Of a DNA stretch of 64,000 bases, positions 15,961 through 52,367 are shown in pieces. Both the position numbers and the translations under genes were made by a program. Origin of the DNA: Candidatus Magasanikiibacteriota bacterium (GTDB taxonomy: Bacteria > Patescibacteriota > Patescibacteriia > Magasanikbacterales > UBA922); NCBI GenBank assembly GCA_018652595.1, contig JABIBU010000013.1, positions 93,043 through 157,042 of the forward strand, written 5' to 3'. Below the pieces are notes generated by a model, which did no database searches, was not told the origin of the DNA, and saw only the letters and a program-made list of their open reading frames with translations. Each line of letters begins with the position of its first letter. The first letter of the stretch is position 1.

Positions 15961-16023
15961 ATATATGCTAATATTAAATTGTTTTATGGTATAATTATAC
16001 CAAAAGTAACCACAAAATACAAT

Positions 16024-35894: not shown

Positions 35895-35903
35895 AAATTA
35901 ATA

Positions 35904-37184
35904 TTATACATCTTCATTTTTTACTATTTCAAAGTCTGGCAATGGTATTACAAAATCGGACTTCAACCCCCTTGCCTTCAATTGTTCCATTATTGGCTTG
36001 GCATAATGCCAAGCCAAAATAATAACATAGTCAGGCTGTTCATCGATAAGGATCTGATTGTTAACCACAGGAATATGCTTGCCCGGCAAATATTTGCCCA
36101 ATTTGAGCGATGCTGGCTGTTCTGCTAAGTATGGTAGTAATTCTGTGCCTACTCCATAATAATTTAATAGAGTTGAACACCTGCCAGGACATGAATTTCC
36201 CACTATACTCTTCCCTTCCCTATTGGTGCTGATCAAAAAATCCATAAACTTTAGACGGGCCATCTTTACTCGATCTGCAAATTTCTGAAATGTTTCTAGT
36301 TTTCCAAGACCTGATGCATCTTCTAAAGCAAGCAAATCAGTCACCGCTTGGCTCACAGGCCTCCCCTTTCCTTTGGTAACATGAACACGAATATTTCCAC
36401 CATATCTATCGCCTCTTTCTACATCAGTCACAGTAAAGTCGTATTGATCAAACAGAGCCACAAGAGCACGCAATGAATAGGTGCGCAGATGTTCGTGGTA
36501 GACTGTATCAAACTGCCCACCTTCAACCACATTCAAAAGATAGTGGGTCTCAGAGACAAAAACCCCATCTTCTTTTAAGAGTGTATATGCACCCATAATA
36601 ACCTCTCCCAAGGTCTGCATATGTGCAAATGTATTTGTAGTCACAATGACAGACGCTTCTCCATGCTTTTCCTTAATCATTTCGGCGGTCTTAATATCAA
36701 AGAAAGATTGAACTGTCTCAATACCCCTTTCATTTGCAAACTTTGCAATATTTGTAGGTTCGACACCAATAGTTTTAATACCAGTACCCTCAAAACCACT
36801 GAGCAAAGTCCCATCATTTGCACCGACATCAACCACTAAATCACCCTCTTGAAGATTATATTTATTGATAAGTGATTCGGCAATCTTTACTTGGTATTCC
36901 ACCAATTCTTTTGTCACACCACTCTTGTATGGATAGTCTGGATGATAGACCTCTTTACCATCGACACAGTAATCTATCTGAGCGTCAGTACAATTTTCAC
37001 ACCAAATCATACGAAGTGGAAAAGTTTTTTCTGGCTGATCAAGCATTTCTTTTGTCAAAAGTGTGTCACATAAAGGCTGATGCCCAAGATCAAGTATGGT
37101 GTGCAATTTATCTGAATTACAAACTTGACACCTGCTAATGTGCCCAGTTTTTATATCGTGATGTTCTGGATAGTTTAGACTCAT
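35904..37184 (-). CDS. NDP-hexose C-methyltransferase (Zn ribbon + class I SAM MTase + C-methyltransferase C-terminal domain)
   Basis: CQVCNS...CENC zinc ribbon, the SAM motif VVDVGANDGTLL, and a C-terminal domain as in TylCIII-type sugar 3-C-methyltransferases. Confidence 0.7.
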   Translation of the reverse strand: MSLNYPEHHDIKTGHISRCQVCNSDKLHTILDLGHQPLCDTLLTKEMLDQPEKTFPLRMIWCENCTDAQIDYCVDGKEVYHPDYPYKSGVTKELVEYQVKIAESLINKYNLQEGDLVVDVGANDGTLLSGFEGTGIKTIGVEPTNIAKFANERGIETVQSFFDIKTAEMIKEKHGEASVIVTTNTFAHMQTLGEVIMGAYTLLKEDGVFVSETHYLLNVVEGGQFDTVYHEHLRTYSLRALVALFDQYDFTVTDVERGDRYGGNIRVHVTKGKGRPVSQAVTDLLALEDASGLGKLETFQKFADRVKMARLKFMDFLISTNREGKSIVGNSCPGRCSTLLNYYGVGTELLPYLAEQPASLKLGKYLPGKHIPVVNNQILIDEQPDYVIILAWHYAKPIMEQLKARGLKSDFVIPLPDFEIVKNEDV

Positions 37185-37231
37185 AAAATTAATATTAAAT
37201 TAAGTTAAATTATTTTTTATTATTTAAGTTT

Positions 37232-38542: not shown

Positions 38543-39425
38543 ACAAAAAATCTTTTTTATTTAATTTATTTAAAATAGTTTTATAATATTTTATCAACTC
38601 TAGCAATGATTGGTCTAGTTCAGTATATTCTATATTTTTTAGCTCTGATTTTAATCTTGAGATATCACATGTATACTCTTTATTCAAGTCAGGTTTATTA
38701 ATTTTTATATCTTTTTCCTCATCTAAAACATATAAAATTCTATGAACTATTGACGACAGAGACACTCTCTCCCCCCTGCCTATATTATAAAATTTGTGCT
38801 TTGTCTTTTCATTTTCAATAAAATATCCTAAAATTTTTACAAAATCATTCACATACAAATAGTCGAAATAAGTGTCTTGATTCATTGTTACAGGAAGACC
38901 TAGCAATACTTTGCAGATAATATTTGAAATAAATCTAGTTTTATAATCTTCATATTTCCCATAAACCCCAAACAATCTCAGGTGGGTAATGAAGCTAGCT
39001 TCCTCACAGTATTTTGCACATACATATTTATAAAAACCATATGGATCTTCTGGTACAGATTTATCAAAATCAGATTCTCTTATATTTTTTAATTCTTGTT
39101 GTTTATTATATTCTGCACCAGAACCTAAGAAAATCATCCTCTTGTACATTTTTTTTGCCCTAACTAGATTGAAAAACATTTTTAAATTATCCAATACAAT
39201 ACCTGGATTATCTTTCTCATTTCTAGCAACGCCCACTGCTGCTGCATGAATTACAATATCTACTTTTTCTTTTTTTAAAAAATTATAAACCAAGCTAGTG
39301 TCTAATAAATTTAATTCTTTACTATTTGGTGCCAGTATTTCGTACTTATCTCCCAATAGCTCAACTATATTTCTACCAAAAAAACCACTACCACCGGTTA
39401 AAAGAATTTTAATTTTCTTTTTCAT
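38535..39425 (-). CDS. NAD(P)-dependent sugar epimerase/reductase (SDR)
   Basis: ILLTGGSGFFGRNIV, YxxxK (YKYVCAKY), and 296 aa. Confidence 0.6.
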   Translation of the reverse strand: MKKKIKILLTGGSGFFGRNIVELLGDKYEILAPNSKELNLLDTSLVYNFLKKEKVDIVIHAAAVGVARNEKDNPGIVLDNLKMFFNLVRAKKMYKRMIFLGSGAEYNKQQELKNIRESDFDKSVPEDPYGFYKYVCAKYCEEASFITHLRLFGVYGKYEDYKTRFISNIICKVLLGLPVTMNQDTYFDYLYVNDFVKILGYFIENEKTKHKFYNIGRGERVSLSSIVHRILYVLDEEKDIKINKPDLNKEYTCDISRLKSELKNIEYTELDQSLLELIKYYKTILNKLNKKDFLYE

Positions 39426-40335
39426 ATATTTCCTTTATTATACCGACCACATTAGAGGTGGATAGACCAGACACACCTCTTAAATAATCTTGTCTGCCTA
39501 TTAATTTTGGGTACTCGTCATTAATTCCAATTCTTTTAAAACTGCATTTTTTATCAGATTCAGCAATAACCTCGGACACTGCACTACCCAGACCTCCTAT
39601 GTAGCTGTGTTCTTCAAGGGTGATAATAATTTTTCTATTGGAAATTAAATTCTCTATCAAGTCTACATCCAGTGGTTTTAAGGTGTGAAAACTAATTACT
39701 TCTACGTCAATCTTATCATTTTTAAGCAATTGGGCGGCTTCTAGAGCAATTTCTGTAATAGAACCTGTGGACAATATACTAACTTCTTTACCTTCTCGTA
39801 AAATACGCCCCTTACCAAAACTAATTTCTTTATTTTTTGAACTTAAATTTTCTTCACCACCCCTATTCAATCTAATAAAAAAAGGGCCTTTGTTTTTAAT
39901 AATATATTCTATTAATTTTTCTGCCTCCAAAGGATCTGCTGGAGATATAATTTTCATATTTGGCAAAACACGCATCACTGCTATATCCTCAATAGAATGA
40001 TGTGTGGCACCCAAAGTGCCGTAAGCAAAACCAGCACCAACCCCCACAACCGTTACATCCAAATTTTGATAACAAATATCAACTCGTATTTGTTCCAAAC
40101 AGCGCATAGTCACAAAAGGCATTATTGAATAAATAAAAACTTTTTTACCCTGCAAGGCTAATCCAGCGGCAACACCAACCATATTTTGCTCAGAAATACC
40201 GACATTAAAGACCTGCTCTGGTAATTCATTTTGAAAATCTTCTATAACTGAAAAACCCAAATCTGCCGTTAAAAAAATAATATTTTTATTCTTCCTGGCA
40301 GCCTCATGAATTGTATTTATAACCGTATTTCTCAT
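39409..40335 (-). CDS. Transketolase, C-terminal (pyrimidine-binding + C-terminal domain) subunit
   Basis: About 308 aa matching the C-terminal half of split transketolases (IFLTADLG...GISEQNMVGVAAG...GATHHSIEDIA). Confidence 0.8.
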   Translation of the reverse strand: MRNTVINTIHEAARKNKNIIFLTADLGFSVIEDFQNELPEQVFNVGISEQNMVGVAAGLALQGKKVFIYSIMPFVTMRCLEQIRVDICYQNLDVTVVGVGAGFAYGTLGATHHSIEDIAVMRVLPNMKIISPADPLEAEKLIEYIIKNKGPFFIRLNRGGEENLSSKNKEISFGKGRILREGKEVSILSTGSITEIALEAAQLLKNDKIDVEVISFHTLKPLDVDLIENLISNRKIIITLEEHSYIGGLGSAVSEVIAESDKKCSFKRIGINDEYPKLIGRQDYLRGVSGLSTSNVVGIIKEIYEKEN

Positions 40336-41144
40336 ATTTTTTCTAATTCACTAATTGCCATTTTATACTCTTCTTCATTAGGGCTTTTGTAATGCCACTT
40401 GATCTTATCCTCCATAAAGGATACACCTTTACCTTTCACAGTATTGGCAATTAAGACTGAGGGCTTTTCTCCCTTTTTTTGAGAAAAAGAAGTTAATTGA
40501 GTATCTAGCGCATTTAAATCATGCCCATCAACTTCTTTTACATCCCAACCAAAAGACTCCCATTTTTTAGCCATTTCATTCATATTAATAATATTATCAG
40601 TTTTTCCCAAACCCTGTTGCTTGTTAACATCTACGATTAAAATAATATTTTTAAGTTTAAACTGGCTACAAAACATAGCAGCCTCCCAAACTGAACCCTC
40701 ATTACACTCTCCATCACCCAAAATACAATAAAATTTTCTATTATTATATCTATTTGCCAAGGCCATACCAGCTGTCATGGATAAACCATGCCCCAAAGAA
40801 CCAGCAGTAGCCTCTACTCCAGATAGGCAATCTTTTATTACATGCCCAGCTATTTTTGAACCATTTTCACAAAAACCTTCCAAATTACTTATAGGAAAAA
40901 ACCCCCTCAAAGCCAAGGTGGAATACAGTGCTGCAGCAGCGTGCCCCTTACTCAATACAAAAATATCCCTATCTTCAAAATTTGGTTTTGATGGTTTGAT
41001 ATTCATTACTTGAAAATATAAGACAGTCAGTATGTCAATAATACTAAAACACGAACCAATATGAGAACTCTTCGACTTATAAATCATCTCTAATACCTGT
41101 CGTCTAATCTCCGAAGTCTTAATTTTTAATTCTTTTTTATTCAT
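40332..41144 (-). CDS. Transketolase, N-terminal ThDP-binding subunit
   Basis: GHAAAALYS...GSLGHGLS...LGDGECNEG (ThDP motif GDG-x-N). Start set at MNKKEL to avoid a 58-nt overlap with the upstream gene. Confidence 0.8.
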   Translation of the reverse strand: MNKKELKIKTSEIRRQVLEMIYKSKSSHIGSCFSIIDILTVLYFQVMNIKPSKPNFEDRDIFVLSKGHAAAALYSTLALRGFFPISNLEGFCENGSKIAGHVIKDCLSGVEATAGSLGHGLSMTAGMALANRYNNRKFYCILGDGECNEGSVWEAAMFCSQFKLKNIILIVDVNKQQGLGKTDNIINMNEMAKKWESFGWDVKEVDGHDLNALDTQLTSFSQKKGEKPSVLIANTVKGKGVSFMEDKIKWHYKSPNEEEYKMAISELEKI

Positions 41145-42102
41145 GTCCAAAATATTTTTTATACCAATTATAGGTCTCTTTAATACTATCTTCAAAGCTA
41201 CTCTTTGCTTTCCAATTTAAAACTTTTTCTGCTTTATCATAATTTAAACTTTGAGCTGGAATCTCATTTGTTTGATTATTTACTATTTTATAATCAATTT
41301 TTTCTTCCAAAACCGCCCCCATCTTCTCAATCAAATCTAATACAGAAAAATTATAACCGGAACTAAAATTGAAAGCTTCGCCTTTTGATTTGTCTATTTG
41401 TTCAGCAAGTTGAATATAGCCATCTACCACATCCTTTACATAAACATAATCGCGAACAAAAGTACCATCGCTTCTTAATTCCAAAGTACTCTTATCTAAA
41501 ACAGACTTCACAACCCCTGGTATAATACGATTCATATTCAAATCTCCAGGACCATAGATATTCCCGAACCTACTAACTGTTACGGGTAAATCGTAAGTAT
41601 TGTGATATGCCAAAGAAATCAAATCAGCACAAGACTTTGAAACATCGTATGGATGGTCACCGCCCATAGCATTTTCTTCTGTGGCATCTGTACAATCCTT
41701 GCCATATGCTTTGTCACTAGAAGCAACCACCAATGCCTTAACTCTGGGAGACATTTTGACTGCCTCTAGAATATTTACTGTACCCATTACATTGGTACTA
41801 ATAGCTTCATAAGGATTGATCACTGCGGTTGGCACTATAGCTTGGGCGCCTATATGAAATACATAATCAATTTCATATTTTGTTACTACATTCATAATTC
41901 TTTCTTTATCATTCAAGTCACCGTATGCACAAACAACACTCTCATCCAATTTGTTCATATAAAAATATGAACTAGGGTCCTTACTACGAACCAGACAAAC
42001 TATTTTATAAGGTTTCAATTTCAAAAGCTCTTCCACCAAGTGAGAGCCAACCAAACCAGTCGCTCCTGTTATCAAAATATTTTTTCCTGTTAGATTTGAC
42101 AT
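41137..42102 (-). CDS. CDP-glucose 4,6-dehydratase-like SDR (RfbG/DdhB-like)
   Basis: ILITGATGLVGSHL, STNVMGTVNILEA and SSDKAYG resemble RfbG blocks (STNVMGT, SDKCYDN). Confidence 0.65.
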   Translation of the reverse strand: MSNLTGKNILITGATGLVGSHLVEELLKLKPYKIVCLVRSKDPSSYFYMNKLDESVVCAYGDLNDKERIMNVVTKYEIDYVFHIGAQAIVPTAVINPYEAISTNVMGTVNILEAVKMSPRVKALVVASSDKAYGKDCTDATEENAMGGDHPYDVSKSCADLISLAYHNTYDLPVTVSRFGNIYGPGDLNMNRIIPGVVKSVLDKSTLELRSDGTFVRDYVYVKDVVDGYIQLAEQIDKSKGEAFNFSSGYNFSVLDLIEKMGAVLEEKIDYKIVNNQTNEIPAQSLNYDKAEKVLNWKAKSSFEDSIKETYNWYKKYFGHE

Positions 42103-42117
42103 AAAAAAATTATTATA

Positions 42118-42906
42118 TTAATTCCAAACTTTCCAAAAAGGATTTTTTGCCCAAAGTTCGTTCATCTCCTCGACCTCTTTATAATTGTCCATGCATTTCC
42201 ATCTTCCTGGACTATTATAAACCATGACCTGACCATCTTTGGCGAGTTTTGAGAAAACACTTTCAATCATACTATCATCTTCGATAAAATCAAAGATATC
42301 TCTTCTAAATACCATAAACCCCCCATTAATAAGATCCTTTGCGCCTTCATTTTCATCCTCTGTAGTGACATTGTGTTGTGCAAAGTTAATCACTTTACTA
42401 TCAGCATCAATATTTAAAAAACCAAAACGAGTAGCCGGCTTCACTCCAGTAATGGTCGCCACAAGACCGTGCTCTTTGTGAAATTCAACAAGTTTAGAAA
42501 TATCTATATCAGCAACACCATCACCATAAGTAACCATAAAATGCTCGTCATTGCCTATATATTTTTTCAGACGCTTGATACGCTCACCTGTTAAACTTTT
42601 TAAACCTGTCTCTGCGAGAGTAACATTAAAATCATCGCAATGATTATTATGCATTACCATATCACCTGTCTTGGTGTTTAGGGTAAAATCATTAACAAAG
42701 GTACGCTCATGTAAGAAATAATCTTTTATCAGATCACCCTTATACCCCAAGGCCAATATAAAATCATTGAAACCATAGTGAGCATATATTTTCATAATAT
42801 GCCACAATATTGGCTTGCCACCTACCGATACCAATGGTTTTGGCTTAAACTCTGTCTCCTCCTTCATACGTGTGCCTGTTCCCCCACACAAAATTATTGT
42901 TTTCAT
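42118..42906 (-). CDS. rfbF: Glucose-1-phosphate cytidylyltransferase (RfbF/DdhA)
   Basis: MKTIILCGGTGTRMKEE...KPKPLVSVGGKPILWHIMKIY...TYGDGVADIDI...INGGFMVF parallels Salmonella RfbF throughout (recalled). Confidence 0.8.
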   Translation of the reverse strand: MKTIILCGGTGTRMKEETEFKPKPLVSVGGKPILWHIMKIYAHYGFNDFILALGYKGDLIKDYFLHERTFVNDFTLNTKTGDMVMHNNHCDDFNVTLAETGLKSLTGERIKRLKKYIGNDEHFMVTYGDGVADIDISKLVEFHKEHGLVATITGVKPATRFGFLNIDADSKVINFAQHNVTTEDENEGAKDLINGGFMVFRRDIFDFIEDDSMIESVFSKLAKDGQVMVYNSPGRWKCMDNYKEVEEMNELWAKNPFWKVWN

Positions 42907-42922
42907 ATGTTAAATATTATAT

Positions 42923-43792
42923 TTATTTTTTTAAAATTATATCCCACTGATCTTTGCCTAGAATAATCTGACCCAGTAAGAGACTTTTTATTAGACGGAA
43001 TAGTCTTTTTTTCTCTGACCAGTCAAACTTTTTTATTAAACTAATAATATTTTCATTTCCTGCTCTCACTGCTTTTTTATTTAAAATTTTTAAGCCACTT
43101 TTTTCACAAATATAATCAATTGATCCTGAAGAAAAGAAATTTAAATGACCAAATGGCAATACCATGCCCCATTTACCTTTCATCATCCTGGCTTTCAAAC
43201 AATCTTTATTAGGAAAATTTAAATATATGATTGCATCCTCGTTCGCTACTTTACTTACTTTTTTTATCATAGACTTTGGATCAGCAACGTGCTCTAAAAC
43301 ATCCCCAAAAACTATAATATCAAACCTAACACCCACTGGTAAATCATTTACATCTTGGACAACTTTCAATTTTTCACTTTTTCCCCACCATCCTGGCTCA
43401 ACACCATATGACATATCCGCCCTTTCAGAAAAATACTTCAACAAATTTCCACTTCCACATCCTATTTCTAAATAATTAAACTCGGTTTTATCAATACACC
43501 TAGTCAGTCTTGAGAAAATTTTCTCAGCATAAATATTATCAGGAGATGTCCCACTATAACCAGGTGGATAAACTACAAATCCAGAACCCTCTCCATACCA
43601 CTTCGATAATACTTCTTGTCTTGGCATAGGATCAATCCACCAATGACTACAGATACTACACTCACGTAAACTTACCTTGTCATCGCAATTTTTATTTATA
43701 ATTTGTACATAATTATCAATAATTTTTGATTTACCAGAACAAACTGTACAATCTACTTGGGCTATTAACCAACTATTATCTATCTTGTCCAT
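42923..43792 (-). CDS. Class I SAM-dependent methyltransferase with an N-terminal Cys-rich zinc ribbon
   Basis: CTVCSG...CSICSHWW followed by LEIGCGSGNLL and DIIVFGDVLEH. Confidence 0.65.
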   Translation of the reverse strand: MDKIDNSWLIAQVDCTVCSGKSKIIDNYVQIINKNCDDKVSLRECSICSHWWIDPMPRQEVLSKWYGEGSGFVVYPPGYSGTSPDNIYAEKIFSRLTRCIDKTEFNYLEIGCGSGNLLKYFSERADMSYGVEPGWWGKSEKLKVVQDVNDLPVGVRFDIIVFGDVLEHVADPKSMIKKVSKVANEDAIIYLNFPNKDCLKARMMKGKWGMVLPFGHLNFFSSGSIDYICEKSGLKILNKKAVRAGNENIISLIKKFDWSEKKRLFRLIKSLLLGQIILGKDQWDIILKK

Positions 43793-43842: not shown

Positions 43843-44685
43843 TTATTTTATATAATCAATTAAGGCTTCTTGCCAATTGCGTAATACTGGCACATTTATT
43901 TCTTTCAATCTTTTGTTTTCCAAAATAGAATTTTGTGGTCTTTTTATTTTTGTCCCACTCTCACTTGTCTTTATTGGAATAGGAGCAGATTCAATCTTAG
44001 AAAATTCTAATATTTTATTTGCAAATTCATACCAGGAACAATGCCCACTATTCGTTATGTGATAAACTCCAGGCTCAGCATCTAATACTATCAATTCATT
44101 TATTTTTTTTGCTAGATCATTTGTATATGTTGGAGAGCCAATCTGATCTTCCACTACTCTAATTTCTTCTTTTTCTCTGGCTTTCAAAATCATTGTCTTT
44201 ACAAAATTTTTCTCACTATTATCTTTATTATTACCAAAGAGCCAGCTCGTACGTATAATTAAATTATTTTCATTTGCCAACTGCACCATATATTCTCCAG
44301 ATAGTTTTGATGCACCATATACATTTAGGGGTCTTGGGCAATCTATTTCGGAAAAACTATTTTGGTCTCCACCAAACACATAGTCAGTACTTATGTGTAC
44401 AATTTTTGCTCCAAAATCATTAGATACTTTTGCAAGAAGATACGGCCCGAAAGCATTAACCCTATAAGCATCCTCTATACATTCTTCTGCTTGTTCCACC
44501 TTATTATATGCGGCACAATTTATCACAATATTAGGATTATATTTACCAAACACTTCTAGTATAGCGTCTTTATTTGTAATATCCAAACCGATCCTATCCA
44601 ATGCAATATAGTCTACTCCCAATCCAGAAAACAGCTGTTGCAATGCATTTCCAAGTTGTCCATTAGACCCAGTAATCAATATCAT
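43843..44685 (-). CDS. rmlD: dTDP-4-dehydrorhamnose reductase
   Basis: MILITGSNGQLG, VINCAAY, HISTDYVFGG and NVYGASKLSGE match the RmlD pattern. Confidence 0.8.
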   Translation of the reverse strand: MILITGSNGQLGNALQQLFSGLGVDYIALDRIGLDITNKDAILEVFGKYNPNIVINCAAYNKVEQAEECIEDAYRVNAFGPYLLAKVSNDFGAKIVHISTDYVFGGDQNSFSEIDCPRPLNVYGASKLSGEYMVQLANENNLIIRTSWLFGNNKDNSEKNFVKTMILKAREKEEIRVVEDQIGSPTYTNDLAKKINELIVLDAEPGVYHITNSGHCSWYEFANKILEFSKIESAPIPIKTSESGTKIKRPQNSILENKRLKEINVPVLRNWQEALIDYIK

Positions 44686-44697
44686 ATTGCAAAAACT

Positions 44698-47007
44698 CTA
44701 ATAATAATCTGCTCTCTGTTGACGATCATAATGTTTAATAAACTCTTCTTTATTTTTTACATCTTTCCACCATGCTTCATTGTTAATATACCACTCTACA
44801 GTATGTTTCATAGCATCTTCGAAATTATGCTGAGACGACCAGCCGAGATTCTGACTTAATTTTGTAGAATCTGGAGCATAACGCAAATCTGCACCAGGAC
44901 GATCATTTGTGTGCTCTACACACTCAGATAGCTCCTTCTCCAATGCCAACATATCTCTAATTGATCCTAAAATTTCAAGATTAGTTTTTGGTGTACCACT
45001 CACATTATATATATGCCCATCCTCTCCTTTGTGTATTACAATATCAATAGCGTTACAAAAATCATTAACATATATCCATGATCGTATATGCATGCCATCA
45101 CCATGGACAGGAATTTTTTTATCTTCAATCAAATTTGAAATTGCAAGTGGAATCAATTTTTCTGGATATTGATATGGACCAAAATTATTTGACCCTCTTA
45201 TAATTAGAGCGGGTAATCCATGACTACGAATATAAGACCTAACAACCAGATCTGCACTAGCTTTAGAGGCGGCATAAGGATTGGATGGATTTGGAGAAGA
45301 CATTTCTGTAGAATGCCCCTCTGGTATATCTCCATAAACCTCATCTGTTGATATCTGCAAAAAACGTGGTATACCGTGTATACGACACTCTTCTACCAAC
45401 ATATGGGTTCCAACAATATTAGTATTTATAAAATCATAAGATGAACACAGTGAACGATCAACATGGGACTCCGCAGCAAAATTTACAACTACATCAAACT
45501 TATTATTGCTAAAAAGATTATCTAGAAAAACCTTATCACAAATATTACCATGAATAAAATTGTATCTTTTATTTTCCTTGGTTTTTCCCAACTCTATTTC
45601 TGTTATGTCTAACAAATTATTTTGATTTCCAGAATAAGTAAGTAAGTCTAGATTAAATAATTCATAATCTTCATACTTATTATAAAGATGGCGTATAAAA
45701 TTTGAGCCGATAAAACCAGAACCACCGCAAATCAATATCTTTTTCCTGTCACCCTTGGGAACACTTTTTAATTTACTATTGCTAGAAATTACTTCACCAC
45801 TTGGCAAGATAAAAGAACCGCCCGCCTCTAAAAAATCTTTCTCTTTTTCAAGAATAACTTCCAGGTAATTCCAGGCTAACAATAAAAAATAATCTGGTAA
45901 ATTTTGATGTGCAGAAACACTATCGATAGTTGGGATGTGCATACCAGGAGTAAATAATCCCTGTTTGGCTTGTAAATCCTCCAAAGCATAGTTTAGTACG
46001 CTATCATCTAAACCACAGTAATTTAGCATGGTATTCCCCTTTGCAGGTGCCCCATAAGCAGCTATTTTTTTACCGGAATTTTTCAAATCAGTCAAGAGTC
46101 CAACTAATTTTTGTTTTTGTGCCTTAACCTTTTGTGCCAACACACTATATGCGCTTATAGAATTCAAGCCCAACTCTAATTCTCTGTCAATCCATTTTTG
46201 TACACTATTACTAACACTATGTTTGCCAGCACGCCCCACAAACAAGCGCAAGGATCTTCCTTGTACTTTGTGAACCTCCACATCAAAAATTTCAAATCCA
46301 TACTGTTCAAAAAGTTTTTTCAATGGGCGAACCGCCAAAAATGATAAATGCTCATGATAAATAGTATCGTATGTCAAATTTTCAAACATATCAATCAAAT
46401 AAGGGGCCTCCATAACAAATACTCCGTCTTCATCGAGTAATTTATCAATACCTTTTACTAGATCGTGGTGATCATCTATATGTGCGACCACATTATTAGC
46501 CATTATTATTTTGGCTTTCCCGTGTTTTTCTGCAATATTTGCACCCACCACTTCTGAAAAGTAATCTACGATTGTTTCTACCCCCACCCTATCTGCAACT
46601 TTCACTACATTTTCAGCTGGGTCTACTCCCAAGGCTCTATAACCCAGATCTTTAAAAAATTTTAATAATATACCATCATTACTTGCTATTTCTACAACAA
46701 AATTTCCAGGTTCCAAAAAACGCTCTACAACATCTTCGGCATATACCTGAAAATGATTTGATAGCTTGGGCATTCCAGAAGAAAAATAAATATAATCAGC
46801 AAACATCTCTTCCTTATTCACAACATCCAAAAGCTGTGCGAGATTACACTCATGACAAAAATATGCAGCAAGTGGATACTTTTTTTCATTTGAAAAATCA
46901 GATTTATTTTTCAAAAAAGAATTGGCAAGGGGCTGATCGCCCAAATCCAAAAATTTTGTTAATTCTTCACTCTTACAAATTCTACATTTTGTATTATGTT
47001 TATGCAT
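44698..47007 (-). CDS. Bifunctional fusion of a sugar C-methyltransferase (N-terminal) and dTDP-glucose 4,6-dehydratase RmlB (C-terminal)
   Basis: N-terminal CRICKS...CHECN zinc ribbon plus a SAM MTase and C-MT C-terminal domain. The C-terminal ~330 aa carry ILICGGSGFIGSNFI, YAASKASAD and DGMHIRSWIYVNDF (RmlB). There is no internal start codon at the junction. Confidence 0.75.
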   Translation of the reverse strand: MHKHNTKCRICKSEELTKFLDLGDQPLANSFLKNKSDFSNEKKYPLAAYFCHECNLAQLLDVVNKEEMFADYIYFSSGMPKLSNHFQVYAEDVVERFLEPGNFVVEIASNDGILLKFFKDLGYRALGVDPAENVVKVADRVGVETIVDYFSEVVGANIAEKHGKAKIIMANNVVAHIDDHHDLVKGIDKLLDEDGVFVMEAPYLIDMFENLTYDTIYHEHLSFLAVRPLKKLFEQYGFEIFDVEVHKVQGRSLRLFVGRAGKHSVSNSVQKWIDRELELGLNSISAYSVLAQKVKAQKQKLVGLLTDLKNSGKKIAAYGAPAKGNTMLNYCGLDDSVLNYALEDLQAKQGLFTPGMHIPTIDSVSAHQNLPDYFLLLAWNYLEVILEKEKDFLEAGGSFILPSGEVISSNSKLKSVPKGDRKKILICGGSGFIGSNFIRHLYNKYEDYELFNLDLLTYSGNQNNLLDITEIELGKTKENKRYNFIHGNICDKVFLDNLFSNNKFDVVVNFAAESHVDRSLCSSYDFINTNIVGTHMLVEECRIHGIPRFLQISTDEVYGDIPEGHSTEMSSPNPSNPYAASKASADLVVRSYIRSHGLPALIIRGSNNFGPYQYPEKLIPLAISNLIEDKKIPVHGDGMHIRSWIYVNDFCNAIDIVIHKGEDGHIYNVSGTPKTNLEILGSIRDMLALEKELSECVEHTNDRPGADLRYAPDSTKLSQNLGWSSQHNFEDAMKHTVEWYINNEAWWKDVKNKEEFIKHYDRQQRADYY

Positions 47008-47013
47008 ATTTCA

Positions 47014-47652
47014 TTAGACTACGTTATAAATAAAATTCTCTGACCTAATATCTTTTGACCAATCCTGCAAAGATAGCCCATGCTTATCTCTATTGCCCAT
47101 TAAATAATCTTTACTTATAAATTCATCGAACTCTTTCTTTAGGTCTTTATCACATAGTGCCCAATCAATTCCTTTTGACAATGGGGAAATGCCTGCCTCA
47201 CCCTCTGGGTTATAATCTCCAGAAAAAAAGTATTCTATTGTACTATCCTCCAAAAAAAAGCTACCGTGTGCAATACCAGGTGGCAACCAAAGCCACTCAC
47301 CATAGTCCGAGCTACCATCAAATGGCATATCATATAGAATGATCTTCCCCTCTGTAGGAGAACCTTTTCTTATGTCTAGCATTATATCTACCATATGACC
47401 GGACACAGTTCTAATCAATTTTCCAAGAGCTGGCTCCCACTGAAAATGAAGCCCCTTAAGCACGCCTGCTTTTGAAAAATTCTCATTAAACTGAACAAAA
47501 TCAACATCTTTTAAAAACCCTAATTCTTTATTTTTTTTAATATCACTTTTTCTTAATATTTCAGAAAAATAACCCCGCTCATCCGCAAATCTTCCAAATC
47601 GGATCACTTGTACACCCGGTAATTCTAATTGTTTTACCTCAATTAATTTCAT
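47014..47652 (-). CDS. rmlC: dTDP-4-dehydrorhamnose 3,5-epimerase-like cupin (RmlC family)
   Basis: FADERGYFSE, KGLHFQ and KLIRTVSGHMVDIMLDIRKGSPTEGK parallel the RmlC blocks. Confidence 0.7.
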   Translation of the reverse strand: MKLIEVKQLELPGVQVIRFGRFADERGYFSEILRKSDIKKNKELGFLKDVDFVQFNENFSKAGVLKGLHFQWEPALGKLIRTVSGHMVDIMLDIRKGSPTEGKIILYDMPFDGSSDYGEWLWLPPGIAHGSFFLEDSTIEYFFSGDYNPEGEAGISPLSKGIDWALCDKDLKKEFDEFISKDYLMGNRDKHGLSLQDWSKDIRSENFIYNVV

Positions 47653-47656
47653 ATGC

Positions 47657-48547
47657 TTATTTGAGCACTCTTTTTATACCCCTGTACAGTTTGCCCGCAG
47701 ACTTTCTTGAATAACTATATGCAACATTGAATGGTAGCAAAAGTGTAAGGAAAAACGAAGGCTTTTCTTTTGTGTTATACGGAGGCTTGTAGATCAAATC
47801 AGAACTATCTAAATTTGATAGTTCATAAAACATTGGTGTCTCCATCCCCTCTTTGACAACCAGGCTTTTTCCATCTTGGCTTTTTGAATATTTTTTATCA
47901 AAAAACTCATTATTAACTGCGGAATATTTTCCAACACCTCCATCTGTTTTTTCTGATATATTTGCCCATCCAGCATTTTCTTGGGGTGCAACATAGTTAA
48001 CTATCCCATGACAGACAAATTCGGGAACATCTTTTCCTTTTGCCAAAATACGATTTATATAATCGCCATCTTCCTGCCCAGTACCCAACAGTCTCTCCTC
48101 AAACCAGCCAACCTCTTTCATAAAACTCTTTGAAATTAAGAAGTGGCTCCAACTCTTATTAATTATAAAAAATGAACTATTGTTTTCTAAAACTTTTTCA
48201 AATTGTTTTCTAAATAATAAATTCAAGCTAACATCATCATTGATAATCAAGGATCTTTTTGCAAAAGACATCATTGCGATCCAATTAAAGCATTTTGCGA
48301 GAGACTGATGCTTCTCATTTGTAATATAATGAACATTGGGAAATTTGTTCAAAAAAGCTGTAACCTGCTTTAGATAATTGATCTGCAACGCCTCGTCATG
48401 ATGGCCATTGATAATACAGATGATTTCTTTGTCAGGAAAAACCTCAACCAACTGATTAATTAGAGGTATAAAAAATTCTTCAAATCTCGCTACATAGGTA
48501 ACAACCCCAATAGAATATTCAAGATTTATCTTTTTTTTATTACTCAT
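47657..48547 (-). CDS. Hypothetical protein, possible divergent glycosyltransferase
   Basis: No recognised motif except a DxD-like LGTGQEDGDY. Its placement inside a glycan operon suggests a glycosyltransferase. Confidence 0.3.
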   Translation of the reverse strand: MSNKKKINLEYSIGVVTYVARFEEFFIPLINQLVEVFPDKEIICIINGHHDEALQINYLKQVTAFLNKFPNVHYITNEKHQSLAKCFNWIAMMSFAKRSLIINDDVSLNLLFRKQFEKVLENNSSFFIINKSWSHFLISKSFMKEVGWFEERLLGTGQEDGDYINRILAKGKDVPEFVCHGIVNYVAPQENAGWANISEKTDGGVGKYSAVNNEFFDKKYSKSQDGKSLVVKEGMETPMFYELSNLDSSDLIYKPPYNTKEKPSFFLTLLLPFNVAYSYSRKSAGKLYRGIKRVLK

Positions 48548-50082
48548 ACTCTAAATTTAATTGCCTTATTAAAAAAAGTTTTGAACAGTTCCAATTCATC
48601 TCTTTCAAAAAATCCAAAAAGTCTAAATAGACCAAAGAATGCGACAATACTAACCCCACCCAAAATAATAACGGAAAATAAATTAGTTATATAAGGAGTC
48701 AAAATTAGTGAGGATAGTAGATATATTATTATAGCAACAAAGACTATTTTAGAAATATTAGTTGTATAAAAATGAATAATCTTTTTTGTCGAAAAACCGA
48801 GCATTTTTCTTTCTACATAGAATAAAATAAATGGGATCGGCAACACGCCGATAAGATATGCAATTGAAGCGCCCACCGCCTTATACGATGGAACCAGCAA
48901 AAACATAGAGACGATATTTAATATCGCCATTGACATGGTACTAATAGCTATAAATTTTAATCTTCTTGTCCCACTTAGATAAAAATGCATAAAAACATTT
49001 ATTGAAAATAAAAAATATGTGACAGTGAGGATATACATTGGGATTGTAGCATTGTCTGCAAACTCTTGTCCCAACCAATACTTTAGCAACCAATAGCCGT
49101 ATACGAAGACTAGTGTGGCCAAAGAAGCAGAGATCAGTAATATAATCTTTATATACCTATGAAAAATATTTTTAATCTTTTCACTGTCCTGCAAAAAGCT
49201 AATATTGGAAAAAACTGGGAATAATGATGTAGACAAACTAAAGCTTGTTGCCTGGATCTTTTCTGGGATCATCTGTGCCGAAGCATAGTATGATACATAC
49301 ACTGGGCCCCAAAAAGCACTCATTACAAATTTATCAAACTGTGTAAGAATATTATTCATTATATTACTTACAGAAACCCAGAAACCATCTTTCATCAAAC
49401 CTTTGAAAATACTTGGTGAAAAAAATAAGACAAACTTTAGATCTGGCAATAATTTCTTCCATATATATACATAGGCCACGAACAAAAACATGGATGATAA
49501 TGCCTGTAGAATAACTAGAGACATTATACCGTACCCAGTGTAAACAGCTACGATACTAGATATTTGTAAAAAAGTTATACTTATCAGGTGCGCCTTGGTC
49601 ATAATTCCAACCCTCTGTAGAGCATAAGGAATTTGAATTAACGGACTAACTATCATCTTAAAAAAGAATGCAAACCCCAAAAACATGAAAGTTACTTTAT
49701 ACGAGTAAACAAAACCATCTGGAATCTTGAGAACCCCCCTAAAGAAATCTGGCAACAACAGTAGTAAAAAAAATACCAAACACCCAATAAATAAATATAA
49801 AATAAATGTAGAACTAAACACCTTGGACAGCTCCTCATTATTTCTTGAGTCTGGATTTTCAGAAAGTTTTTTTACAAAAGTATAATTAAAACCAAAATCC
49901 AATAAAGAAAATAAGGCTAGACTGGCATTTAAGAGGACATAAAATCCATATTTTGAAGGACCCAACCGACTTATCAAAATCGGCATAACAACAAAAGCCA
50001 AAGCCATTGGCCAGATAAAACCAATGAAGCTATAGGCAGAATTTTTTATTGTTCTATTTGCCAATTCACTCATAATTACCAA
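48544..50082 (-). CDS. wzx: Wzx-type oligosaccharide flippase (MOP superfamily polysaccharide biosynthesis protein)
   Basis: 512 aa, about 14 TM, with an N-terminal region typical of Wzx/RfbX. Confidence 0.7.
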   Translation of the reverse strand: MVIMSELANRTIKNSAYSFIGFIWPMALAFVVMPILISRLGPSKYGFYVLLNASLALFSLLDFGFNYTFVKKLSENPDSRNNEELSKVFSSTFILYLFIGCLVFFLLLLLPDFFRGVLKIPDGFVYSYKVTFMFLGFAFFFKMIVSPLIQIPYALQRVGIMTKAHLISITFLQISSIVAVYTGYGIMSLVILQALSSMFLFVAYVYIWKKLLPDLKFVLFFSPSIFKGLMKDGFWVSVSNIMNNILTQFDKFVMSAFWGPVYVSYYASAQMIPEKIQATSFSLSTSLFPVFSNISFLQDSEKIKNIFHRYIKIILLISASLATLVFVYGYWLLKYWLGQEFADNATIPMYILTVTYFLFSINVFMHFYLSGTRRLKFIAISTMSMAILNIVSMFLLVPSYKAVGASIAYLIGVLPIPFILFYVERKMLGFSTKKIIHFYTTNISKIVFVAIIIYLLSSLILTPYITNLFSVIILGGVSIVAFFGLFRLFGFFERDELELFKTFFNKAIKFRV

Positions 50083-50321
50083 TCTTTAGTTTTATCTATA
50101 GTTTTAATTTTTACTTTTTGATATAAATTTGTTGCCTTTTTATCAACCTCTGGAGAGACTATACGCAACAATTCATGCCCTAAAATCCTATATTGTTTGC
50201 CAACTTTATTGGCTCTAAGAAGCCCCTTCTTTAGAAGACGTTTCATGGTGCTATTACTGACTTTTAGCAATTTTTCAGCTTCGGCAGTTGTATACACCTC
50301 ATTTGGGTTGATTTCTCCCAT
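50076..50321 (-). CDS. Small HTH DNA-binding protein (excisionase/MerR-like HTH_17 family), first gene of the wzx operon
   Basis: 81 aa. YTTAEAEKLLKVSNSTMKRLLKKGLL is a helix-turn-helix. Confidence 0.6.
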   Translation of the reverse strand: MGEINPNEVYTTAEAEKLLKVSNSTMKRLLKKGLLRANKVGKQYRILGHELLRIVSPEVDKKATNLYQKVKIKTIDKTKDW

Positions 50322-50493: not shown

Positions 50494-51444
50494 TTATTGA
50501 TTTTTGAACCACTCATAACTCAATTTTACCCCCTCTTCCAGGTCAATCTTGTGTTTCCAGCCCAAATCATGCATTTTACCCATATCCAAGAGCTTGCGGG
50601 GAGTTCCATCTGGCTTGGAAGTATCCCAGACAATCTCACCCTCAAACCCAACTACTTTTTTGACTATTTCTGTCAATTCCTTGATGCTCACATCCTCCCC
50701 CACACCCAAATTCATGAAAATCTCTCCTTTTTCATTCTGGGCCTCATTTGGATCAAAATTATTCATAATAAATACAGATCCACCAGCCATATCATCCACA
50801 TAGAGAAATTCGCGTTTTGGACTGCCTGTACCCCAAGCTATGACTTCCTTATCCCCTTTTTCTTTGGCCTCATGGAACTTTCGGACTAATGCTGGCAATA
50901 CATGAGAGGTTTCTAAATCAAAATTGTCCCCCGGACCATAAAGGTTTGTTGGCATTACTGCAATAAAATTTGTTCCGTACTGTCGATTGTAGCTCTGGCA
51001 CATCTTAATACCAGCAATTTTGGCCAAAGCATACGGTTCGTTTGTCGGCTCGAGCAATCCAGTGAGCAGATACTCTTCTTTCATTGGCTGTGGGCACATC
51101 TTGGGATATATACAAGAAGAACCCAAAAATAATAGCTTCTTGATGCCGTTCAAATATGCTTGATGGATAATATTATTTTGAATCTGCAAATTTTCATAAA
51201 TAAATTGTGCCGGATAGGTATTATTAGCCATTATTCCACCAACCTTGGCAGCTGCCAAAAACACATACTCGGGTTTTTCTGCAATGAAAAAATCAGTAAC
51301 AGCCTTTTGATCTAATAAATCCAACTCTGTGTGAGTTTTTACAACTAGATTAGTGTATCCATCTGATTCTAATTTGCGAACAACAGCAGAACCAACCAAA
51401 CCTCGATGGCCTGCAATATATATTTTTGCATTTTTATCCATCAT
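50494..51444 (-). CDS. fcl: GDP-L-fucose synthase (GDP-4-keto-6-deoxymannose 3,5-epimerase/4-reductase)
   Basis: [38 protein letters not shown] and [12 protein letters not shown] are near-identical in pattern to E. coli Fcl. Confidence 0.9.
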
Positions 51445-51448
51445 AATT

Positions 51449-52339
51449 TTAACTATTAACTGTCTTTTTGAGATATTCCTCTGAATCTTGGTCTAATTTG
51501 GGATCTATTAGACTCTGCAAGTGATCACAAATTAATCTAGCGACCTCTTCTTGATATTGTGCATATGTCTTTACCTCGACCAAACCGTCATCTACACTCT
51601 CGCAATCACCCACTTCAACCACTTCTCCGGCATCATCAAAACCCAAACCCTCTTTATACAAAAAAGGATAGCGCTCTTTAAATTTACCAGCTTCCATCCT
51701 CTCACCTGTTGTTACAAATTTTGTATCTCCTTTTGTACCAGGTAGAGGTGAAGATGTCATATCATCTGCCAAATGAACTATCATATCTTCGATACTTCTA
51801 TCTGGATTCAAAACTAACTCTCCATCTTCATCTAAGCTAATGAAATCTTCTAGACTCCCATGACCTGTTTCTTTGCCAGATGCTTCTACATAGCTCAATA
51901 AATCTTCTGAAATCCCCTGATCTTTCAATAAACTCTGCATGGTCTCGTAAGCCTCTTTATCATAAACACCCTCAGATTGATGCGAGCCTCTAGCTTTTTT
52001 TCTAAAAATTTCAAAGCGCTTATTAGCATCGTGTATTAAAGATCTTTCTGTAATATTTCTATACATTTCATCATCAATGGCCCCTGAACTCAATAATTTC
52101 TCAGCTATTTTATTTGCACAAATTCCGACGGATATACAATGTTCCCCCACATTACGAAAATCTTCAGCGTCTGGTTCATTATCTTTGTATGGATTGGGAA
52201 CTGCTTCAGTTTTATCTGGATGCACTCCGCCAACCTCCAAAACCTTGAAAGCCTGTGGAAATTCTTTTGTAAATTCTACTTTTGCCTCTGCATATCTCTG
52301 TTCCCAAGGTTTAAATTTTCCTGTGTCATGTGTGCTCAT
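51449..52339 (-). CDS. Hypothetical HD-domain-like protein, atypically GC-rich, inserted between fcl and gmd
   Basis: Candidate HD motifs [15 protein letters not shown] and VHLADDM. GC content is clearly above the surroundings, with spurious overlapping plus-strand ORFs. Confidence 0.4.
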
Positions 52340-52367
52340 ATTATAAAATACTATATTTTATTAATTT

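Follow-up and report, generated by a model that had tools for sequence, protein, structure and literature searches.

A Fused Sugar C-Methyltransferase and dTDP-Glucose 4,6-Dehydratase Encoded in a Surface-Polysaccharide Locus of a CPR Bacterium

A single gene of a Candidatus Magasanikiibacteriota bacterium encodes a sugar C-methyltransferase (C-MT) joined to a dTDP-glucose 4,6-dehydratase (RmlB), and the fused reading frame is genuine with near certainty. The gene lies in an rmlC/fusion/rmlD operon within a surface-polysaccharide locus (Table 1), in a 64-kb stretch of DNA that was analyzed as a whole (hereafter, the window). Its product is probably a bifunctional enzyme of a module that combines the rhamnose pathway with C-methylation. 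No published description of a C-MT/4,6-dehydratase fusion was found in a full-text literature search. The fusion is a modest, evolutionarily labile variant and represents neither new chemistry nor a new type of system.

Sugar C-methyltransferases have been studied almost solely in actinomycete antibiotic pathways. Here, members of this family occur within rml operons in archaea, in Nitrospirales, and in CPR bacteria, with fusion to RmlB in one clade. C-methyl-branched 6-deoxyhexoses are thus predicted for the surface glycans of these organisms, the envelopes of which have hardly been characterized. If this is true, branched-chain deoxysugars, found so far mainly in antibiotics and a few types of LPS, would reach the envelopes of major uncultivated lineages. 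The fused enzyme could also serve glycoengineering as a compact natural two-step catalyst from NDP-glucose to a branched 4-keto sugar, and the fused and unfused forms provide a natural series for asking whether fusion of consecutive nucleotide-sugar enzymes alters flux at a branch point.

Domain Organization and Conserved Motifs of the Fused Protein

From its N-terminus, the fused protein comprises a C-methyltransferase at residues 6-402, a linker of 19 residues, and, at residues 423-750, a dTDP-glucose 4,6-dehydratase. In the C-MT half, PF08421, the class I SAM domain, and PF08484 each exceed the gathering score, and this half aligns end to end with the solved structures of MtmC (4rv9), KijD1 (5t6b), and TcaB9 (3ndi), with E-values from 3.5e-95 (MtmC, the best) to 8.8e-73. 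The SAM domain, which aligns with the same three enzymes, contains the motif VEIASNDG, His176, and Tyr217-His-Glu219-His220. The TcaB9 active-site residues Tyr76, His181, Tyr222, Glu224, and His225 correspond to Y72, H176, Y217, E219, and H220 of the fused protein when mapped via the alignment with KijD1, which is numbered as TcaB9 is, once an offset of 2 residues for a tag is taken into account. By these features, the C-MT half is identified as a complete TylC3/MtmC/TcaB9-type sugar C-methyltransferase.

The RmlB half scores 388.4 bits against the NCBIfam equivalog TIGR01181 (cutoff 365.1), covering model positions 1-321, and matches RmlB structures in the PDB (best E = 4e-92). The Pfam domains and this score bear out the preliminary description of a single polypeptide with a complete sugar C-MT and a complete RmlB, and the RmlB motifs quoted there (GxxGxxG, YxxxK, and DGMHIRSWIYVNDF) are all present. 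GGSGFIGS occupies residues 428-435 (GxxGxxG, 428-434; G428, G431, and G434), the catalytic motifs are S-T-D-E at 553-556 (Thr554-Asp555-Glu556) and Y578xxxK582, and the DGMHIRSWIYVNDF motif begins at residue 636 of the fused protein.

Table 1. Features of the fused gene and its surroundings (positions in the window).
Feature	Position	Strand	Size or residues	Basis
Fused C-methyltransferase::dTDP-glucose 4,6-dehydratase gene	44698..47007	(-)	769 aa, ATG start	
Zn-ribbon domain	46801..46986	(-)	Residues 8-69 (Cys8/Cys11/Cys51/Cys54)	PF08421 Methyltransf_13, 77.5 bits
Class I SAM-binding methyltransferase domain	46288..46743	(-)	Residues 89-240	PF13489 Methyltransf_23, 69.5 bits
C-methyltransferase C-terminal domain	45802..46266	(-)	Residues 248-402	PF08484 Methyltransf_14, 160.2 bits
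Interdomain linker, polar, Lys-rich	45745..45801	(-)	Residues 403-421	Read from DNA
RmlB domain (extended SDR)	44758..45741	(-)	Residues 423-750	TIGR01181
RmlC-family cupin epimerase	47014..47652	(-)	212 aa	PF00908, 115.9 bits
RmlD (dTDP-4-dehydrorhamnose reductase)	43843..44685	(-)	280 aa	TIGR01214, 295.3 bits (cutoff 224)
SAM methyltransferase, candidate O-methyltransferase of the product	42923..43792	(-)	289 aa	PF13489
Glucose-1-phosphate cytidylyltransferase-like gene	42118-42906			Sole nucleotidyltransferase in the window
Putative glycosyltransferase	47657..48547	(-)	296 aa	Weak PF10111 match
Wzx-type flippase, head of operon block	48544..50082	(-)		PF13440 and PF01943
Stand-alone C-MT	35904..37184			

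The four zinc-ribbon cysteines (8, 11, 51, and 54) are conserved in 16 of 16 fused orthologs, in which GxxGxxG, Thr554-Asp555-Glu556, and Tyr578/Lys582 are likewise invariant. The four cysteines, Tyr72, His176, and Tyr217/Glu219/His220 are invariant across 56 fusions. Mean pairwise identity among the fused orthologs is 62-64% in the domains vs. 15% in the linker, the length of which varies. This difference, together with the invariance of the catalytic residues, indicates at the sequence level that both halves are under selection, and both are very probably enzymatically active. An AF2 model (pLDDT 89.9) contains two confident domains with a disordered linker between them; pLDDT falls below 50 solely at residues 412-419, and a pTM of 0.56 denotes no defined interdomain geometry.

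Authenticity of the Read-Through

As first described, the junction (residues 403-421; DNA 45745-45801) has neither a stop codon nor a Met. The fused CDS has 0 nucleotide differences among four independently assembled contigs (two from NCBI, one from ENA, and one from Logan). A database search for the same architecture found 15 diverged fused orthologs with 55-83% identity, each of which is also one ORF; three of them were re-checked as such in DNA. An artefact of sequencing or assembly, by which a frameshift or chimera merged two separate genes, might be suspected: in relatives the genes lie in differing, overlapping frames, where one error of 1 nt could be enough to join them, and the linker DNA is A-rich. 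However, its longest A-run is just 5 nt, the identical CDS comes from assemblies of different sources and assemblers, and the 15 single-ORF orthologs differ in linker sequence and length, which makes such an artefact extremely unlikely. The sequencing error that was initially feared is not the source of the read-through, since it is reproduced in these assemblies and orthologs; nor does every orthologous locus have a stop between the domains, as some are fused.

An in-frame TTG at codon 425 of the fused gene follows an AGGA sequence. An internal start yielding free RmlB was rejected as a conserved feature, as no in-frame start is kept in the fused loci L005, L007, and L008.

Neighboring Genes and the Surface-Glycan Locus

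The rmlC and rmlD genes that had been noted nearby directly flank the fusion: the RmlC-family gene lies 6 nt upstream and the RmlD equivalog 12 nt downstream. The RmlC-like protein scores 110.5 bits against TIGR01221, under the cutoff of 155.75, and matches RmlC structures in the PDB. Its gene has a 60% ortholog at the same position in L010, and the protein is just 32% identical to the RmlC proteins encoded at other fused loci. Orthologs of RmlD with 68-72% identity directly follow the fusion in L005, L008, and L010.

The putative glycosyltransferase has a 68% ortholog that adjoins RmlC in L010 and may be a candidate transferase for the product sugar. The Wzx-type flippase gene occupies the corresponding place in both L010 and the contig of P0017. 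The SAM methyltransferase downstream of RmlD could possibly O-methylate the product sugar and is weakly linked to the module: it has no counterpart in L010, and other Methyltransf_23 genes, which neighbor the fusion in L005, L007, and L008, are just 24-28% identical to it.

The second, stand-alone C-MT mentioned in the preliminary description does exist, and is 35% identical to the fused C-MT. Although it was then treated as sharing the logic of the fusion, it falls in a different sub-cluster, of the CDP-3,6-dideoxyhexose type, along with RfbH/E1, a gene resembling CDP-glucose dehydratase, and a split transketolase.

Proposed Pathway and Product

The substrates, step order, regiochemistry, and kinetic coupling given here for the fused enzyme are those that we infer. 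In the proposed pathway, the RmlB domain, an NAD+-dependent extended SDR, would oxidize and dehydrate an NDP-glucose and so form NDP-4-keto-6-deoxy-D-glucose; the substrate is most likely dTDP-glucose, which would come from outside the window. The TylC3/MtmC/TcaB9-type domain would then use SAM to methylate a carbon beside the 4-keto group via an enolate, with C-3 favored and C-5 possible. The upstream RmlC-family epimerase and the downstream RmlD reductase would complete the sugar as a dTDP-C-methyl-6-deoxy-L-hexose of the 3-C-methyl-L-rhamnose type, which, possibly O-methylated, would be taken by the glycosyltransferases and Wzx/Wzy machinery of the locus. The likely benefit of fusion would be 1:1 stoichiometry and proximity, which may bias the shared 4-keto intermediate to methylation before RmlC and RmlD convert it to rhamnose. 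To our knowledge, every characterized enzyme of the C-MT family acts on NDP-4-keto sugars.

The end product is likely a C-methyl-6-deoxyhexose. A C-methyl-branched 6-deoxyhexose for a surface glycan, as had been proposed, is the most reasonable product; the mycarose-like (2-deoxy) logic proposed with it is unsupported because the module has no 2,3-dehydratase or 3-ketoreductase beside it. Methylation at C-3 is moderately favored, on prior expectation and similarity to 3-C-methyltransferases. Noviose-type methylation at C-5 by a NovU-like C-MT half, giving a 5-C-methyl (gem-dimethyl) L-rhamnose derivative, would suit the gene set, which matches NovT/U/W/S (RmlB, C-MT, RmlC-like, and RmlD-like, respectively), as well as the atypical RmlC-like partner, which scores under the equivalog cutoff. 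This is nevertheless unlikely, as the nearest relatives of solved structure are without exception 3-C-methyltransferases, and 5-C-methylation is not known outside aminocoumarin clusters. The RmlC-like protein also matches canonical RmlC (88.7 bits) better than NovW (48.3 bits), though none of these points is decisive; comparison of this protein with NovW, EvaD, and RmlC does not discriminate between C-3 and C-5.

The order of steps and the nucleotide of the substrate may be questioned in a similar manner. The fused domains might perform non-consecutive steps, with RmlC first producing dTDP-4-keto-L-rhamnose for the C-MT, as in the order of nogalose synthesis with SnogG2. In this locus and in L010, an RmlC gene stands immediately before the fusion, as it does before the counterpart in the contig of P0017, the closest unfused relative; in the protein P0018, the domains run RmlB-RmlC-RmlD-CMT. 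This order of steps is judged somewhat unlikely: CMT-rmlB-rmlD is constant in several bacterial loci where RmlC lies far off, is tiny, or was not detected, and TylC3, the homologous C-MT of mycarose biosynthesis, precedes both the 5-epimerase and the 4-ketoreductase in that pathway. As to the substrate, no RmlA homolog was found in the window with an NCBIfam profile and an E. coli RfbA sequence (used solely as a probe, with 67% identity matches on other loci), in agreement with the preliminary description, and rmlA was not found in any fused-type locus examined. The RmlB half could therefore act on another nucleotide sugar, e.g., UDP-glucose, or CDP-glucose from the neighboring cytidylyltransferase-like enzyme, which in the window is encoded two genes downstream and in L010 immediately follows RmlD. 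Close homologs of RmlB include UDP-glucose 4,6-dehydratases. A UDP-Rha route has been described (PMC9415975). Yet the RmlB half scores 388 bits against TIGR01181 vs. 77 bits against the CDP-glucose dehydratase model, the nucleotidyltransferase groups with its own CDP-dehydratase-like and RfbH genes, and homologous archaeal operons hold bona fide rmlA, so that a substrate other than dTDP-glucose is quite improbable. Of the lower-identity archaeal matches to the RfbA probe, those in L012 and L026 were confirmed by NCBIfam.

Distribution and History of the Module

Judging from the loci compared, the fusion is one state of a widespread, conserved, and so far undescribed module of rhamnose genes and a C-methyltransferase. 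The unfused arrangement is the commoner one across phyla: other Patescibacteria and one Nitrospirales chromosome have CMT-rmlB-rmlD as separate, often overlapping genes, and archaeal loci have the order rmlA-rmlD-rmlC-CMT-rmlB, with rmlA of the long form (360 bits vs. a cutoff of 320). Among GTDB species representatives, a true fusion occurs in L010 only, and in a set of 1.84 billion representatives, the RmlB-type forward fusions all fall into one cluster (P0012) at 50% identity. The loci L011, L012, L013, and L019, which gave single full-length tblastn HSPs, were rejected as fusions: they contain in-frame stops and consist of adjacent genes.

In close relatives, the unfused CMT/rmlB pairs have a stop and an rmlB Met of their own, with an overlap of 14-20 nt or a gap of 1-5 nt; overlapping junctions are seen in L015, L017, and L018. 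The fusion probably arose from such an adjacent, coupled CMT-then-rmlB pair when the stop was lost or the overlap shifted by 1 nt. In bootstrapped trees built by a fast distance method, fused and unfused forms interleave (P0014 with L017, 99%; P0017 with P0001-P0005, 100%), which indicates that fusion or fission has been repeated. Together with the separate genes of close relatives, this pattern suggests that fusion is readily gained or lost where the two genes are translationally coupled, and that it is not a specially evolved machine.

Channeling, which the preliminary description took the fusion to imply, was conjectural, and the separate genes of close relatives and the interleaved tree tell against it; true channeling by the fused enzyme is doubtful. 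At nearly even chance, the fusion is real and kinetically meaningless, having resulted from near-neutral loss of a stop in a coupled pair, so that the domains act like free enzymes. The interleaving on the trees, the unconserved and disordered linker, the pTM of the model, and the prevalence of unfused genes across phyla all agree with such neutrality, and the use of unfused genes by the closest relatives in particular means that the fusion itself may be selectively near-neutral. However, the same activities have been fused independently in the opposite order (the dehydratase-like::C-MT proteins P0156 and P0165) and in the four-domain P0018 (1181 aa; RmlB, RmlC, RmlD, and C-MT, in that order), and the fused state is kept down to ~55% identity; these independent fusions and this persistence suggest some benefit of co-localization. 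The most extended version of the proposed pathway, in which five activities (RmlA, RmlB, C-MT, RmlC, and RmlD) make a C-methyl-branched L-rhamnose-type surface sugar widespread in CPR bacteria, Nitrospirales, and methanogen-related/ANME archaea, and, in the fused forms, real kinetic channeling lets the tethered C-MT take up the 4-keto intermediate ahead of RmlC and RmlD, is regarded as somewhat unlikely.

Comparison with Known Systems

The fused C-MT half has the three-domain architecture common to MtmC, KijD1, TcaB9, and TylC3/EryBIII, and shares the four zinc cysteines and the Tyr/His/Tyr-x-Glu-His active-site residues of the first three. MtmC, KijD1, TcaB9, and TylC3/EryBIII are separate proteins of ~410-426 aa from actinomycete antibiotic clusters, with 2,6-dideoxy or 3-amino sugars as substrates, whereas the fused C-MT is joined to RmlB in a CPR surface-glycan locus without 2-deoxygenation genes nearby. 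The C-terminal half shares all catalytic motifs with RmlB (6bi4, 2hun, 1g1a). Unlike stand-alone RmlB, it lacks its own start codon and forms the C-terminal part of a predicted ~88-kDa protein, and rmlA is absent from the locus.

The pathways of noviose (NovT/U/W/S), nogalose (SnogG2), and, as proposed, virenose follow the same logic, in which a 4,6-dehydratase is followed by C-methylation beside the 4-keto group, with RmlC-like and RmlD-like enzymes; there, the enzymes are separate, and the products occur in antibiotics or Coxiella LPS. Four of the five members of the noviose-type set (NovT/U/V/W/S) are present and contiguous at the locus, RmlA being absent from the window. For virenose, the proposed TDP route consists of TDP-glucose 4,6-dehydratase and then NDP-hexose 3-C-methyltransferase (PMC3539893).

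Fusions of the plant RHM, NRS/ER, and ArnA types also place consecutive nucleotide-sugar steps in one polypeptide; RHM joins 4,6-dehydratase, 3,5-epimerase, and 4-ketoreductase activities (PMC9415975). Here, in contrast, the partner is a SAM C-methyltransferase and not an epimerase/reductase or formyltransferase, and the downstream enzyme comes first. With this partner, and with RmlC and RmlD encoded by separate genes, membership in the RHM and NRS/ER families was rejected, and these are analogues only.

Elsewhere in uncultivated lineages, members of this C-MT family are joined to NDP-sugar SDRs, in C-MT::UXS-like and C-MT::GalE-like proteins and in the RmlB-RmlC-RmlD-C-MT protein. C-MT::UXS-like proteins of ~770 aa account for 60 of the 120 best database matches. 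These ~770-aa C-MT::SDR proteins (33-41% identity) were considered as distant orthologs and rejected: in these and other C-MT::SDR fusions, the SDR halves are 22-28% identical to the fused RmlB half and fall below the RmlB cutoff (TIGR01181). The ~770-aa proteins carry UXS/ArnA-like motifs, those of another 4-keto-sugar generator, and by sequence are a different fusion family. In public annotation, the fused protein of the present locus is named a plain dTDP-glucose 4,6-dehydratase, its C-MT half having been missed.

The Fused Gene and Its Domains

The minus-strand ORF at 44698–47007 starts with ATG and encodes a 769-aa protein (the fusion), in which the Pfam trio of sugar C-methyltransferases (C-MTs) is followed by an extended SDR domain (see the table). 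The SDR half scores 388.4 bits against the NCBIfam dTDP-glucose 4,6-dehydratase (RmlB) model TIGR01181 (cutoff 365.1) and matches solved RmlB enzymes with E-values as low as 4e-92. The junction DNA translates as ...ILPSGEVISSNSKLKSVPKGDRKKILICGGSGFIGS..., with neither a stop nor a Met. The C-MT half aligns end to end with three solved homologs, MtmC (4rv9; E = 3.5e-95), KijD1 (5t6b) and TcaB9 (3ndi), each a 3-C-methyltransferase acting on dTDP-4-keto sugars (TcaB9 is described as a C-3′-MT; PMC9539859). Each domain is a typical representative of an established family, and the NCBI product name of the fusion is plain ‘dTDP-glucose 4,6-dehydratase’. Alignment with KijD1 maps Tyr72, His176, Tyr217, Glu219 and His220 as candidate active-site residues of the C-MT half, which we take to be the counterparts, in position and role, of TcaB9 Tyr76, His181, Tyr222, Glu224 and His225. 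The AlphaFold2 model (mean pLDDT 89.9, below 50 only at residues 412–419; pTM 0.56) indicates two well-folded domains joined by a flexible tether, and a PDB search found no chain spanning both halves.

Authenticity of the Read-Through

The preliminary description took C-MT::RmlB to be a single polypeptide, and its motifs, coordinates and neighbor genes all proved right on re-examination of the window. An identical protein is present on at least 23 contigs, and the CDS shows no nucleotide differences on four contigs of separate sources (two NCBI MAGs named Candidatus Magasanikbacteria, one ENA assembly and one Logan assembly), which match the window at ≥99.99% identity across 14–22 kb. The database search that the description had proposed recovered the same architecture in 15 more 90%-identity clusters (P0002–P0016; 55–83% identity, 758–795 aa), three of which were verified as single ORFs at the DNA level. 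Cys8/11/51/54, the SAM motif, His176 and Tyr217-x-Glu219-His220 of the C-MT half are invariant in 16/16 fused proteins, as are GxxGxxG, Thr554-Asp555-Glu556 and Tyr578-xxx-Lys582 of the RmlB half; the two domains average 62% and 64% pairwise identity and the linker 15%, and the linker also differs in length, with a 26-residue insertion in P0005. An assembly artefact is ruled out because the identical CDS recurs independently and diverged orthologs are fused as well, and a dead domain in either half because the catalytic residues are invariant, the domains are conserved relative to the variable linker and the model has two domains. The gene is real, both domains are intact and conserved, and it lies inside an rml-type operon; the fusion was correctly observed and is a new architecture made from known enzymes.

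Fusions of consecutive nucleotide-sugar enzymes have been reported, such as RHM and NRS/ER (PMC9415975). We found no publication on a C-MT::RmlB fusion, or on an operon of rml and C-MT genes in CPR bacteria or archaea.

Genomic Neighborhood

From ~5 kb to ~61.8 kb, every gene save one plus-strand ORF (15946–17412) is on the minus strand, and this region is a large surface-polysaccharide locus encoding Wzx, a Wzy_C protein, many glycosyltransferases (GTs) and GDP-fucose enzymes. The fusion belongs to a tight gene block running from Wzx to a SAM methyltransferase, and profile and sequence searches of the window revealed no RmlA homolog. Since gmd and an fcl-like gene are present, the locus encodes at least three nucleotide-sugar pathways (GDP, CDP and dTDP type).

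The second, stand-alone C-MT noted nearby does exist, but it is only 35% identical to the C-MT half and belongs to a different pathway, that of a CDP-3,6-dideoxyhexose-type sub-cluster downstream of and separate from the fusion block. This sub-cluster also encodes a cytidylyltransferase-like protein (slightly under cutoff), a CDP-glucose dehydratase-like protein, RfbH/E1 (697 bits), a split transketolase pair, an SDR and a GFO/IDH/MocA oxidoreductase, with no sign of an E3 reductase. Local GC at the second C-MT is 0.40 vs. ~0.32. The split transketolase is a possible donor of a two-carbon branch, and the product may be a doubly branched dideoxy sugar.

Features of the fusion, its neighborhood and related loci
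Feature	Location	Strand	Remarks
Zn ribbon PF08421	fusion residues 8–69		Pfam
Class I SAM domain	fusion residues 89–240		Pfam
PF08484	fusion residues 248–402		Pfam
Extended SDR	fusion residues 423–750		Pfam
Acyltransferase–SDR protein	22605–24752	-	second fusion protein in the locus, 715 aa; Acyl_transf_3 membrane acyltransferase (22–349), SDR epimerase/dehydratase (398–703), GDP-fucose-synthase-like
913-aa ORF	26776–29517	-	no Pfam family match; inside or beside glycan locus
CDP sub-cluster	34884–42906	-
SAM methyltransferase	42923–43792	-	after RmlD
RmlD	43843–44685	-	12 nt past fusion; 295 bits (cutoff 224)
RmlC-family epimerase	47014–47652	-	6-nt gap to fusion
GT	47657–48547	-	4-nt gap to RmlC-family gene
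Wzx	48544–50082	-	4-nt overlap with GT gene
HTH_17	50076–50321	-	81 aa, excisionase-like DNA-binding; between GDP-fucose genes and Wzx flippase, marking edge of operon block
GDP-L-fucose genes	50494–53420	-	gmd 589.6 bits (over cutoff), fcl-like 497.2 (cutoff 500); 296-aa ORF without family match between them
1266-aa ORF	55655–59455	-	no Pfam family match; inside or beside glycan locus
PMT/PMT_2 (GT-C) gene	L005 10780–12126; L007 8831–10327; L008 10854–12209		after module; two small GT2 genes before
rmlA(long)-rmlD-rmlC-CMT-rmlB	L012 5477–10178; L013; L026 5502–10152		compact operon; Methanocellales, Methanophagales (ANME-1), Methanosarcinales MAGs

Fused and Unfused Relatives

The order Wzx-GT-RmlC-fusion-RmlD is kept in a Magasanikbacteria locus (L010) with an 80%-identical ortholog. 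Two more distant fused loci, L005 and L008, have the order GT2-GT2-fusion-RmlD-RmlC-MT-PMT_2 (PMT_2 being a GT-C glycosyltransferase), with RmlD 68% identical to that of the window; the arrangement in these and in fused locus L007 recalls lipid-carrier-mediated extracytoplasmic glycosylation (GtrB/ArnC plus ArnT-like). In a 50%-clustered set of 1.84 billion representatives, forward fusions of the RmlB type make up just one cluster. Among GTDB species representatives, the true fusion occurs only in L010, and elsewhere C-MT and RmlB are adjacent separate genes: in Lloydbacteria, Giovannonibacteria, two MAGs labelled ‘Saccharibacteria’, another Patescibacteria MAG, a complete Nitrospirales chromosome, Methanocellales, Methanophagales, Methanosarcinales and one Nanoarchaeota MAG. 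Several full-length tblastn HSPs first taken as fusions contain in-frame stops and represent separate genes.

At all nine junctions read directly (L011, L012, L014, L015, L017, L018, L019, L022, L026), the C-MT gene closes with a stop codon. Where its start is visible, rmlB has its own Met, overlapping by 14–20 nt in another frame or lying 1–5 nt downstream (~35 nt in L012); the RmlB match of L011 and L019 starts ~160–200 nt past the C-MT stop. The in-frame stop at 8102 within the C-MT match of L013 may reflect pseudogenization or an error. At the overlaps in L015 and L018, one frame reads ...PVGDEIEII* and another MKSKSFKKILICGG, and a 1-nt shift would yield a linker resembling that of the window.

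Bacterial loci have the order CMT-rmlB-rmlD and archaeal loci rmlA-rmlD-rmlC-CMT-rmlB, the latter over curated cutoffs (rmlA 360 vs. 320, rmlD 290 vs. 224, rmlB 461–472 vs. 365); the module around C-MT/rmlB is conserved across loci. Given this operon, the surface glycans of the archaea would be expected to contain a C-methyl deoxyhexose. P0017, at 72% identity the closest stand-alone C-MT, terminates exactly at the C-MT domain boundary, and its gene has an RmlC gene on one side and, on the other, a 374-aa SDR gene that overlaps it by 4 nt.

In NJ trees (200 bootstrap replicates) of the concatenated alignment and of each half, fused P0014 pairs with unfused L017 (99% concatenated, 97% C-MT half), and P0017 is sister to the fused clade P0001–P0005 (100%). 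In the C-MT-half tree, P0006 and P0007 cluster with P0010, and in the RmlB-half tree with P0001–P0005 (100% each), in agreement with their identities to the query (58% and 78% in the respective halves). Because fused and unfused forms are intermixed and the half-trees conflict, fusion or fission must have happened more than once, and the halves must have recombined.

Other Fusions of These Enzyme Families

P0018, a 1181-aa ENA metagenome protein, joins RmlB (3–329), RmlC (340–492), RmlD (494–768) and C-MT (778–1174) in one chain, its RmlB and RmlD parts exceeding equivalog cutoffs. P0156 and P0165 have the reverse order, a 4,6-dehydratase-like domain (best model TIGR01181, yet under cutoff) preceding the C-MT. 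A larger C-MT::SDR family accounts for 60 of the best 120 matches (60 clusters in P0041–P0120, ~770 aa), with UXS/ArnA-like SDR motifs (consensus SSEIYGD, CYDESKR); a smaller class has a GalE-like SDR (P0021/22/23/25/28). Hosts of both are MAGs named Woesebacteria, Magasanikbacteria, Udaeobacter and Woesearchaeota, and these proteins may make C-methyl-branched pentoses. The UXS/ArnA-like motifs of the larger family fit a general rule that such C-MTs fuse to whichever SDR makes their 4-keto substrate.

Further types, found among P0124, P0127, P0259, P0026, P0032/34, P0040 and P0019/46, are DegT/RfbH-like::RmlB, GT2::RmlB, RmlB::RmlD, [SIS+transaldolase]::C-MT and GT2::C-MT (C-MT C-terminal in both), C-MT::DegT, and proteins of ~855 aa that resemble double C-MTs, judged by length and Pfam listing.

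Proposed Pathway and Channeling

From family knowledge, the RmlB domain would form NDP-4-keto-6-deoxy-D-glucose, the C-MT domain would methylate the carbon beside the keto group via an enolate, and the RmlC-like epimerase and RmlD would finish a C-methyl-6-deoxy-L-hexose. Methylation is rather probably at C-3, since every relative with a solved structure is a 3-C-MT and 3-C-methyl sugars occur much more often; noviose-like C-5 methylation by the C-MT half is less probable. Analogy with TylC3 favors methylation before epimerization, and a nogalose-like order of steps is likewise less probable. The proposed TDP route to virenose places a 3-C-methyltransferase straight after the 4,6-dehydratase (PMC3539893), the order proposed here for the fusion domains.

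The preliminary description further held that the fusion channels its intermediate. The fusion itself stands, and true channeling seems doubtful, because the fused/unfused pattern is labile and interdomain geometry is undefined in the model. Proximity at a branch-point intermediate may be beneficial, to judge from the C-MT/SDR fusion rule and from the reverse-order fusions that arose independently.
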